From the UHGV virus genome UHGV-0176440: a stretch of 11,560 nt of DNA. One strand, given 5' to 3'. Position numbers and translations under genes: made by a program. Origin of the DNA: a virus. Positions 9,476 through 9,984 of this stretch are shown in pieces (the first letter of the stretch is position 1; the number at the start of each line of letters is the position of its first letter). Below the pieces are notes generated by a model. It worked only from the letters and a program-made list of their open reading frames with translations, was not told where the DNA came from and ran no database searches.

Positions 9476-9532
9476 CCTTAGACAGGGAGAGAAAGAACAT
9501 AGTGACCCCAAGCGAAGCGCCCCTCTAAAAAG
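9476..9532 (+). repeat. Copy 1 of a roughly 50-nt GC-rich dispersed repeat (CTTAG..GGGAGAGA..GTGACC..CCCCTC..AAAAG)
   Basis: Aligns with 9928-9984 at about 70% identity; each copy sits shortly upstream of a TTGACA box (9604 and 9991). Confidence 0.6.
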
Positions 9533-9927
9533 ATTTTTTAGCTATTTTGTTTAAAAACATATCAAACGATACATTTTATTGATTTAGGTCAAAGACAAAA
9601 GCATTGACAAAATGGTATGATTGTTCACATAGCCCTCTCTTAACAGACTTTTTAAGAGCTTTTGAGAAGTTTGTTAAACAGACACTCTTTCTGGAGTGTT
9701 GTCTTTTACTTAAGAGGCTTGTTTAGGTAACTCTCAAGACATTTCTTAAGACTTCACTGTTAAGACAGAACCTACCTTCGGTTTCATGGTTCTCTTCCTC
9801 CCGTTAAACACCCCTTCCTAGCAACTTCATACTTATCTGTCAAGTACCTTTACAGACTCTATCAAAACCCTCTAAATCTGACCTGATATAGATACTGTGA
9901 AGGCATATTCTCTAGGTCTGTGTAGCT

Positions 9928-9984
9928 TACTTAGCGGGAGAGAGGGGATATGGTGACCATAGGGGAACCCCTCCTACTTAAAAG
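9928..9984 (+). repeat. Copy 2 of the roughly 50-nt GC-rich repeat; contains palindrome TATGGTGACCATA and inverted GAGGGG/CCCCTC
   Basis: See copy 1; the internal 13-bp palindrome is at 9949-9961. Confidence 0.6.

Follow-up and report, generated by a model that had tools for sequence, protein, structure and literature searches.

The window analysed here, 11,560 nucleotides (nt) of the virus genome UHGV-0176440, is as a whole an E. coli chromosomal island of approximately 11.4 kb, which is inserted next to wrbA and occupies positions 1–11494, homology with its relatives ending at about 11494. Within the 2-kb region 8511–10555, which contains no open reading frame (ORF) of 85 codons or more, a GC-rich motif occurs in two copies, copy 1 (9477–9533) and copy 2 (9929–9985), and in a weak third copy further upstream. 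The repeat is real, conserved and functional-looking, and the evidence favours a stem-loop boundary and recombination module over the palindrome of copy 2 as a protein site. With a confidence that falls a little short of even, we propose that the copies are composite boundary modules, made up of stem-loop and promoter, by which cassettes are delimited and shuffled in the manner of the PeSLs of T4-type phages. A PeSL consists of a Gn-loop-Cn stem-loop with TTGACA-N17-TATAAT after it; PeSLs are located where relatives differ by indels or replacements, and the DNA between two of them can be lost (PMC4122927; PMC2839356). The two observations at the base of the proposal are that the arms of copy 2 are able to pair in every variant and that the modules are sites of cassette exchange, deletion and insertion.

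The repeat and its stem-loops

The original prediction, made from the sequence of the window, had described two copies of about 70% identity, which is borne out over a gapless stretch of 40 nt (9485–9524 versus 9936–9975); its exact offset of 452 nt matches at only 19 of the 57 positions, whereas the true register is 451 nt with small gaps. In local alignments of copy 1 with the rest of the region 8511–10555, the best match is copy 2, with a score of 53 that none of 500 dinucleotide shuffles reaches (mean 28.4, standard deviation 3.5, maximum 44), and the similarity is therefore beyond chance. A hidden Markov model built from copy-1 orthologues only (nhmmer) finds copy 2 at E = 6.6e-6 and the third copy, 9303–9355, at E = 0.026, and a plain self-BLAST does not flag the pair of copies 1 and 2.

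The original prediction named a motif not conserved in homologous elements as part of what would refute it, and the motif is conserved in the relatives: both copies are present in nearly all of 57 related loci (designated by L numbers), collected from E. coli genomes, E. albertii, IMG/VR contigs and gut metagenomes. The block from copy 1 to promoter P1 is the best-conserved part of the 2-kb region, the relatives being otherwise 72–92% identical. The 37 metagenome loci were fetched by a pattern inside copy 1, which accounts in part for how invariant its 3′ half appears, but loci that BLAST retrieved show this constancy too. The motif copies and the units around them are as follows.

9303–9355, + strand: motif copy 3 (weak), CCACTAAGCGAGAGAAGAGCG...GCTCCTTTCTTAAC, with a purine arm that pairs with the pyrimidine arm
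9373–9402, + strand: promoter-like pair 17 nt downstream of copy 3, TTTACA-18-CACAAT (9/12)
9445–9465, + strand: small hairpin of the upstream unit, GAGGG-CTTTGAAATGT-CCCTG (stem GAGGT/ACCTC instead in some relatives)
9469–9491, + strand: copy-1 5′ hairpin, the upstream pyrimidine run CTTCCC pairing with the copy-1 purine arm GGGAGAG
9477–9533, + strand: motif copy 1, with a nearly invariant 3′ half, AAGCGAAGCGCCCCTCTAAAAAGA, and a replaceable 5′ half
9525–9541: A5/T6 palindrome CTAAAAAGATTTTTTAG, adjoining copy 1 on its downstream side and hardly varying among relatives
9537–9542 and 9560–9565: weak promoter-like pair 3 nt after copy 1, TTTAGC-17-TATCAA (7/12, below the scan threshold)
9592–9621, + strand: promoter P1, AAGACA-18-TATGAT with TG at −15/−14 and TTGACA (9604–9609) inside the spacer, from the promoter scan
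9626–9928, + strand: RNA1, the body of the P1 unit, from RNAalifold on 16 sequences
9929–9985, + strand: motif copy 2, consisting of the purine arm GAGGGG, a variable loop, the pyrimidine arm CCCCTC and the A-rich TTAAAAGAA
9991–10019, + strand: promoter P2, TTGACA-17-TAAGAT (scan 10/12)
10026–10186, + strand: RNA2, the P2 unit, with a 5′ hairpin, a GG array, a pseudoknot and an intrinsic terminator

The sequence elements that the original prediction named are all located where it placed them, i.e., the two TTGACA hexamers (9604–9609 and 9991–9996), the 13-bp palindrome TATGGTGACCATA (9949–9961), and GAGGGG (9942–9947) opposite CCCCTC (9968–9973). Its statement that both copies lie just upstream of TTGACA holds for copy 2, which ends 6 nt before 9991, and fails for copy 1, which ends 71 nt before 9604. 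The hexamer at 9991 is correctly spaced, by 17 nt, from TAAGAT. The hexamer at 9604 is located just 6 nt from the conserved extended −10 element TGgTATGAT (9613–9621), for which the −35 position is 9592–9597, and hence is probably not the −35 element of P1. The block 9533–9640 is almost invariant across the relatives, the extended −10 element of P1 is invariant, and its −10 region provides an anchor found in nearly all loci. In the relatives, TTGATG or TTGACG-17-TATAAT occupies the place of P2, and both versions are good sigma-70 promoters. The position of copy 2, 6 nt upstream of a promoter that stays functional through a complete change of sequence, speaks for a boundary module.

The pairing of the copy-2 arms is formed in the minimum free energy (MFE) structure of all 26 distinct variants, with 6–12 pairs and −8.9 to −18.1 kcal/mol. 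It is kept despite two unrelated loop sequences, and GAGGGG/CCCCTC becomes GAGGGT/ACCCTC in some variants. The conserved parts of copy 2 are the purine arm CTTAGCGGGAGAGAGGG and the pyrimidine arm with its A-rich tail, CCCCTCCT..TTAAAAG. The palindrome, which the original prediction took for a possible protein-binding site, is not conserved: it varies to ATATGTGACCATA or AATATGTGACAATA, or the loop is wholly replaced by GATACATGAGAAAGA. Copy 3 forms an MFE hairpin of −14 kcal/mol (z = −1.2). In copy 1, the purine arm pairs with the upstream pyrimidine run in all 18 distinct variants (ΔG −3.7 to −9.3 kcal/mol), through the stems CUUCCC/GGGAAG, CUCCC/GGGAG or CUCUC/GAGAG, with L056 changed on both sides; the pairing (9469–9491) was assessed sequence by sequence, as a MAFFT alignment of the copy-1 variants misaligned the short hairpin. 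The 5′ half of copy 1 occurs in three forms: the ordinary purine arm, a variant resembling a scar, or the beginning of a cassette for a DNA adenine methyltransferase.

We note that the loop and 3′ arm of copy 2 (9955–9985, GACCATAGGGGAACC..CCTCCTACTTA) resemble what we take to be the 3′ end of E. coli 16S rRNA, AACCGTAGGGGAACC...CACCTCCTTA. This stretch is presumably the loop of helix 45 and the anti-Shine-Dalgarno sequence, and the alignment is about 4 standard deviations above shuffles (1/1000). The alternative loop allele of copy 2 is without this resemblance.

Cassette exchange at the motif copies

Three upstream flanks, two loops and three downstream units are found around copy 2, in 10 combinations, and all four gametes are present for every pair of segments. 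The downstream units are RNA2 behind either of two promoter versions (P2a-RNA2 and P2b-RNA2) and a different unit, 'RNA3'; 15 of 46 copy-2 instances precede this different unit, which has a poor promoter (TAAAAT with a poor −35). Deletion is exemplified by L046, in which a hybrid motif, with a 5′ half from copy 3 and a 3′ half from copy 1, is joined at a microhomology and the intervening unit is deleted. An extra cassette, consisting of the motif and RNA3, follows RNA2 in L006, and in L048–L050 the 5′ arm of copy 2 is kept and a cassette with an AP2-type gene takes the place of the rest. In about 11 loci, a gene for a DNA adenine methyltransferase begins right next to the 3′ half of copy 1.

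Such junctions between close relatives, by indel or replacement, are those seen at PeSLs. Within 9300–10150, 39 of 47 internal homology breakpoints (~83%) fall into four 50-nt bins (200 nt) of copies 1 and 2, a figure that is descriptive, as the loci share ancestry and the breakpoints are not independent events. The junctions lie before the 5′ arm, at both borders of the loop and after the 3′ arm. Because of these several positions and the microhomology in L046, recombination between the repeated arms fits better than a fixed crossover.

In L045 (1753–2421) and approximately ten metagenome loci, a DNA N6-adenine methyltransferase gene is flanked by a copy-3-like motif on one side and by the 3′ half of copy 1 on the other, and its GTG start falls within the core of the motif. 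The 'GGGAAGAATAATATTGGTGACAC' allele of copy 1 has the appearance of a scar left by this methyltransferase cassette. Many homology breakpoints also fall in an 84-nt tandem duplication further upstream (9105–9188 and 9200–9281; 82% identity, E = 3e-17 by self-BLAST). Each copy of this duplication contains the AT-rich inverted repeat CTTATTTTTCAATAAG, and the duplication could be a candidate origin feature or binding array.

Proposed boundary modules and alternative readings

As boundary modules, the motif copies would divide a modular array of small transcription units, which for the most part specify noncoding RNAs; in relatives the array also contains methylase, AP2-type regulator and recombinase genes. 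Each module would comprise a purine-rich arm, which either forms the closing side of the final hairpin in the unit upstream or pairs with the downstream arm; a loop that is short and replaceable; and a pyrimidine-rich arm with an A-rich tract leading to the next sigma-70 promoter. Jointly, the three parts would form a stem-loop just ahead of the promoter. The stem-loop may mark or stabilise the 3′ end of the upstream RNA, or insulate that RNA from the next promoter, the A-rich tract may be an upstream element of the next promoter, and the repeated arms may provide homology patches for recombination.

The resemblance to PeSLs includes, for copy 2, a Gn-loop-Cn stem-loop immediately ahead of a near-consensus sigma-70 promoter (TTGACA-N17-TA...T), the presence of several diverged copies in a plastic region before small units, and indel and replacement junctions, among them the deletion between tandem copies in L046. 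In copy 2, a G-rich 5′ arm and a C-rich 3′ arm form the stem-loop, and copy 3 also forms a hairpin. Copy 2 with P2 has the PeSL architecture, and copies 3 and 1 would be degraded versions of it, with weak promoter-like pairs. Recombination between tandem PeSLs excises mini-circles; among the loci studied, the L046 hybrid is the single product of such a deletion. Unlike PeSLs, the copies are located in a chromosomal island at wrbA and not in a T4-type phage genome with its hyperplastic region, they flank mostly noncoding RNA units and not small ORFs, their loop is long (15–22 nt) and replaceable, the full stem-loop with a strong promoter is found in copy 2 only, and the motif is without sequence similarity to PeSLs. 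Owing to its location in the island and the noncoding units that it flanks, the motif would work like a PeSL but is not a member of the family.

Several observations weigh against the boundary-module reading. No copy folds better than its shuffles on either strand (z −1.5 to +0.7). In copy 1, the arm-to-arm stem has only 4 bp and the strong promoter P1 is approximately 80 nt away. The arms are conserved in sequence with little covariation, which also fits recognition by a protein or another RNA. The motif shares with Rho-independent terminators and moron boundaries a GC-rich hairpin between two co-oriented units, but the stem is followed by ACTTAAAAG, GTTAAAAG or AAAAAGA rather than a U-tract. 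The terminator scan, which calls the true terminator of RNA2, skips the motif copies, so no classical intrinsic terminator is predicted there.

The original prediction regarded the copies as regulatory or protein-binding modules, and in an operator or activator model an island, phage or host protein would recognise the arms CTTAGCGGGAGAG ... CCCCTCCT and control P1, P2 or both, for example by switching on the RNA units upon helper-phage infection. The arms are more conserved than a simple hairpin needs, copy 2 is located at about −40 to −95 of P2, the island encodes helix-turn-helix (HTH) proteins, and partial inverted copies of the 5′ arm are found at 9792–9809 and 10303–10322. We nevertheless consider such sites unlikely: the palindrome is not conserved and the loop is replaceable wholesale, the distances to the promoters differ (6 versus 71 nt), the same motif stands ahead of three different downstream units, one of which has a poor promoter, and the copies are neither in dyads nor helically phased. 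A dimeric protein would be expected to leave a conserved dyad at a fixed spacing from the promoter, and neither is observed. What stands of the regulatory reading is that the copies are part of the control architecture of two small units; the role of the palindrome and a consistent promoter spacing are not supported.

Recognition of the arms by RNA is also conceivable. Processed immunity RNAs include the P4 CI RNA with seqA, seqB and seqC, C4 of P1 and P7, and the IIR transcript of PLE. The island resembles these systems in its setting: it is satellite-like, has a large region free of ORFs and many small-RNA units, and contains direct repeats as well as, within a transcript, an inverted complementary copy (9792–9809). 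This copy, CTCTTCCTCCCGTTAAAC in RNA1, is complementary to the motif 5′ arm. According to this model, CUCUUCCUCCCGUUAA of RNA1 (9792–9809) would bind the purine 5′ arms of the motif copies by base pairing, whether in cis or in trans, and thereby cause termination, processing or sequestration, and the CCCCUCCU arm could be an anti-Shine-Dalgarno-like seed. RNAalifold pairs CCGUU (in 9792–9809) with UUAGCGG of copy 2, one-sided changes are compatible with the pairing (GC to GU in 7 and UG to UA in 2 of 16 sequences), the complementarity to the common copy-1 arm reaches 16 nt in L029, L046 and L048, and such RNAs are used by the satellites P4 and PLE (PMC7567579). In opposition to these points, no pair is changed on both sides, the motif arm varies against an invariant CCCGUUAA element, at times with loss of pairs (GCGAG, GUGGA), and copies 1 and 3 are located upstream of P1, so that pairing in cis would need read-through from further upstream. 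In addition, Rfam, which includes the C4 family, gives no match up to E = 1. Unlike the P4, C4 and PLE RNAs, the pairing in the island thus comes with neither a family model, compensatory changes nor signs of processing, and control at the RNA level has in our assessment a low probability.

Site-specific recombination would make the motif copies the sites of an integron-like array, with the small serine recombinase (10555–11130) as the candidate enzyme. Cassette junctions do map within the motif, the recombinase cassette (~10361–11193) differs between relatives, and at its borders stand TATGTGACCCCC (10327) and ATATGGTGACCA (11188), both similar to ATAGTGACC or ATATGGTGACC, the core of the motif. 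The array shares with integron attC sites the imperfect inverted repeats, the variable centre, the cassette boundaries and the position beside a recombinase gene. However, the recombinases found in the island are solely of the serine type, with no tyrosine integrase IntI, the junctions are not fixed as at the R′ crossover, and the cassettes bring their own promoters. Junctions at several motif positions and the microhomology in L046 are better explained by homologous recombination, the palindrome is odd-centred, unlike the 2-bp crossover of serine recombinases, and is not conserved, the boundary 12-mer is unconserved in L006, and L006, L009 and L010 have motifs with no annotated recombinase nearby. 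Dedicated sites of this kind are accordingly very unlikely. An equally small chance is given to a neutral origin, in which the copies are leftovers of an old segmental duplication of an RNA-gene unit and have breakpoints only because repeats recombine; copies just ~70% alike, a marginal copy 3 and folding no better than shuffles agree with this, but no stretch of the 2-kb region is better conserved than copy 1 with its flanks, and all 26 copy-2 variants retain the pairing of their arms even where the loop is replaced.

Four other candidates were rejected. Iterons of a replication origin do not fit the irregular spacings of 172 and 452 nt and the presence of 2–3 copies only. A small minus-strand peptide within the motif (AGGAGG-N9-ATG in copy 2, noted by eye) conflicts with 1-nt indels among the relatives and has no ATG in copy 1. 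The 12-mer ATATGGTGACCA at 11188 was considered as a fourth copy, but L006 does not conserve it. An inversion of the segment with the recombinase, between sites resembling the motif, does not apply, as the relatives carry different recombinase genes rather than the same gene inverted.

Stem-loop and promoter boundary modules, if this is what the copies are, would not be confined to T4-type phages, and would organise and shuffle noncoding-RNA and accessory cassettes in an island of about one in ten complete E. coli genomes. The motifs are also handles with which to map transcription units, explain the mosaic structure and test a satellite versus a defence role. In a more far-reaching view, which is quite unlikely, the 2-kb region would be an exchangeable library of promoter-plus-RNA cassettes of a satellite-like island of virulent Felixounavirus phages, with the motifs as dedicated swap junctions, possibly through the variable serine recombinase of the island. 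RNA2 would then be a copy of a helper-phage RNA that could wrap and titrate a ring-shaped, TRAP-like phage protein, or seed a borrowed R-loop replication origin. TRAP binds triplets at 5-nt spacing.

The RNA units and the island

The two small transcription units of the original prediction, which both run rightward, are supported by the invariance of P1, the functional upkeep of P2, and the terminator and covarying pseudoknot of RNA2. Rightward transcription of structured RNAs is further supported by the covariation of the cUUCGg hairpin of RNA1, together with the promoters conserved in function. In RNA1, CTTAACAG (9639–9646) forms a long-range pair with CTGTTAAG (9757–9764). The hairpin 9767–9793 is capped by cUUCGg, and its stem covaries between AGAACC/GGTTCT, GATAC/GTATC and GTAAC/GTTAC; this covariation argues for a structured RNA, read on the + strand, as the product of the P1 unit. 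A terminator-like hairpin at 9681–9700 is found in one allele class only. The P2 unit contains the following elements.

10030–10049, + strand: 5′ hairpin
10067–10126, + strand: period-5 GG array of about twelve 5-nt units, each with GG
10119–10151, + strand: covarying H-type pseudoknot
about 10156–10182, + strand: intrinsic terminator, called by the scan

The autocorrelation of G in the array is 0.46 at a lag of 5 and 0.35 at a lag of 10, and the length of the array in relatives varies mostly by steps of 5. In the pseudoknot, 93% of cells are paired versus 28–39% with slid partners, both-sided changes occur in 6 of 11 pairs, and none of 500 shuffles reaches the observed covariation. RNA2 matches no Rfam family (scan up to E = 1), and a scan of the genome collection with an 18-mer of the pseudoknot returned mostly chance matches, with E. 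albertii as the sole true relative.

The segment 10065–10151 of RNA2 is 75–82% identical to unannotated intergenic DNA of Felixounavirus and Suspvirus phages, where the homologous modules stand behind a strong promoter and number four per genome, grouped in two clusters close to the DNA ligase gene. L001 has RNA2-like modules at 2268–2600 and 3700–3975. SUSP2 has four, in two clusters, located solely at 27.6–29.2 kb between the DNA ligase and the thymidylate synthase/DHFR genes. As a model, RNA2 might act as a decoy for a ring-shaped RNA-binding protein or as an R-loop origin. The GC skew of SUSP2, examined as an origin test, follows gene orientation and has its minimum at 34 kb rather than at 27.6–29.2 kb, and thus gives no support for an origin. 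Elsewhere in SUSP2 (L091 14839–19168; 64.8–69.2 kb), each small early ORF is preceded by a repeated cassette of ~88 nt, which is PeSL-like and comprises TTTACA-N18-TAGTAT, a GGGG...CCCC inverted repeat around the −10 and the shared leader CCTAAACTGGAGATTCAAAAATG. The island motif has no homology to these promoter/hairpin cassettes (nhmmer in both directions, E > 0.8).

Besides the noncoding region, the island encodes a large serine recombinase (173–1816), Dit-like baseplate and tape-measure proteins, parts of which are 90–96% identical in DNA to Felixounavirus phages, an HNH endonuclease, several small genes without assigned function, and the small serine recombinase (10555–11130). HTH proteins are encoded at 7013–7432 and by the C-terminus of 10555–11130, and a further island protein at 7953–8510. 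The island thus has pieces of tail genes that are almost identical to those of Felix-O1-type phages, together with a copy of a phage RNA that lacks annotation, and it looks like a satellite or a defence island against virulent Felixounavirus phages, which are used in typing and therapy. It appears to be a previously undescribed island related to Felix-O1-type phages; the literature searched on Felixounavirus satellites, on islands at wrbA and on the phage RNA yielded neither a relevant paper nor a description of it.

The noncoding segment 9300–10300 has matches in 540 of 5,426 complete E. coli genomes, at 71–95% identity, all of them chromosomal and unannotated, and none in the plasmid collection. 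DETEC-P61 and FORC_041 are examples of E. coli strains that bear the island. Relatives of the island occupy other insertion sites, adjoining yciI, mdtG or a DUF72 gene. Scans of the whole window for Rfam families (up to E = 1) and for tRNA or tmRNA found none, and Pfam and PHROGs gave nothing informative for the small ORFs of the island or for the phage genes beside the RNA modules.

The small serine recombinase is part of a variable cassette (10361–11193), in place of which relatives have different recombinase genes, on either strand, or none, between conserved flanks. At the other end of the 2-kb region, a strong promoter-like site, TTAACA-18-TATAAT with TG (8597–8626, + strand), is followed by a small ORF with an in-frame ATG at 8808 and its end at 8984, which encodes a hydrophobic peptide (translation by eye) and is annotated in relatives as a hypothetical protein. 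A terminator (8999–9022) is located downstream of this ORF, a Chi site, GCTGGTGG, is found at 8850, and a divergent leftward promoter at 8589–8561. In addition, a 41-nt direct repeat of 85% identity connects 6102–6142 with 11453–11493, the second copy lying at the right end of the island and the first lying within an internal ORF-free region of 560 nt. This internal region is weakly similar to the flanks of copy 1, with 6137–6167 resembling 9439–9469 and 6185–6216 resembling 9527–9558.

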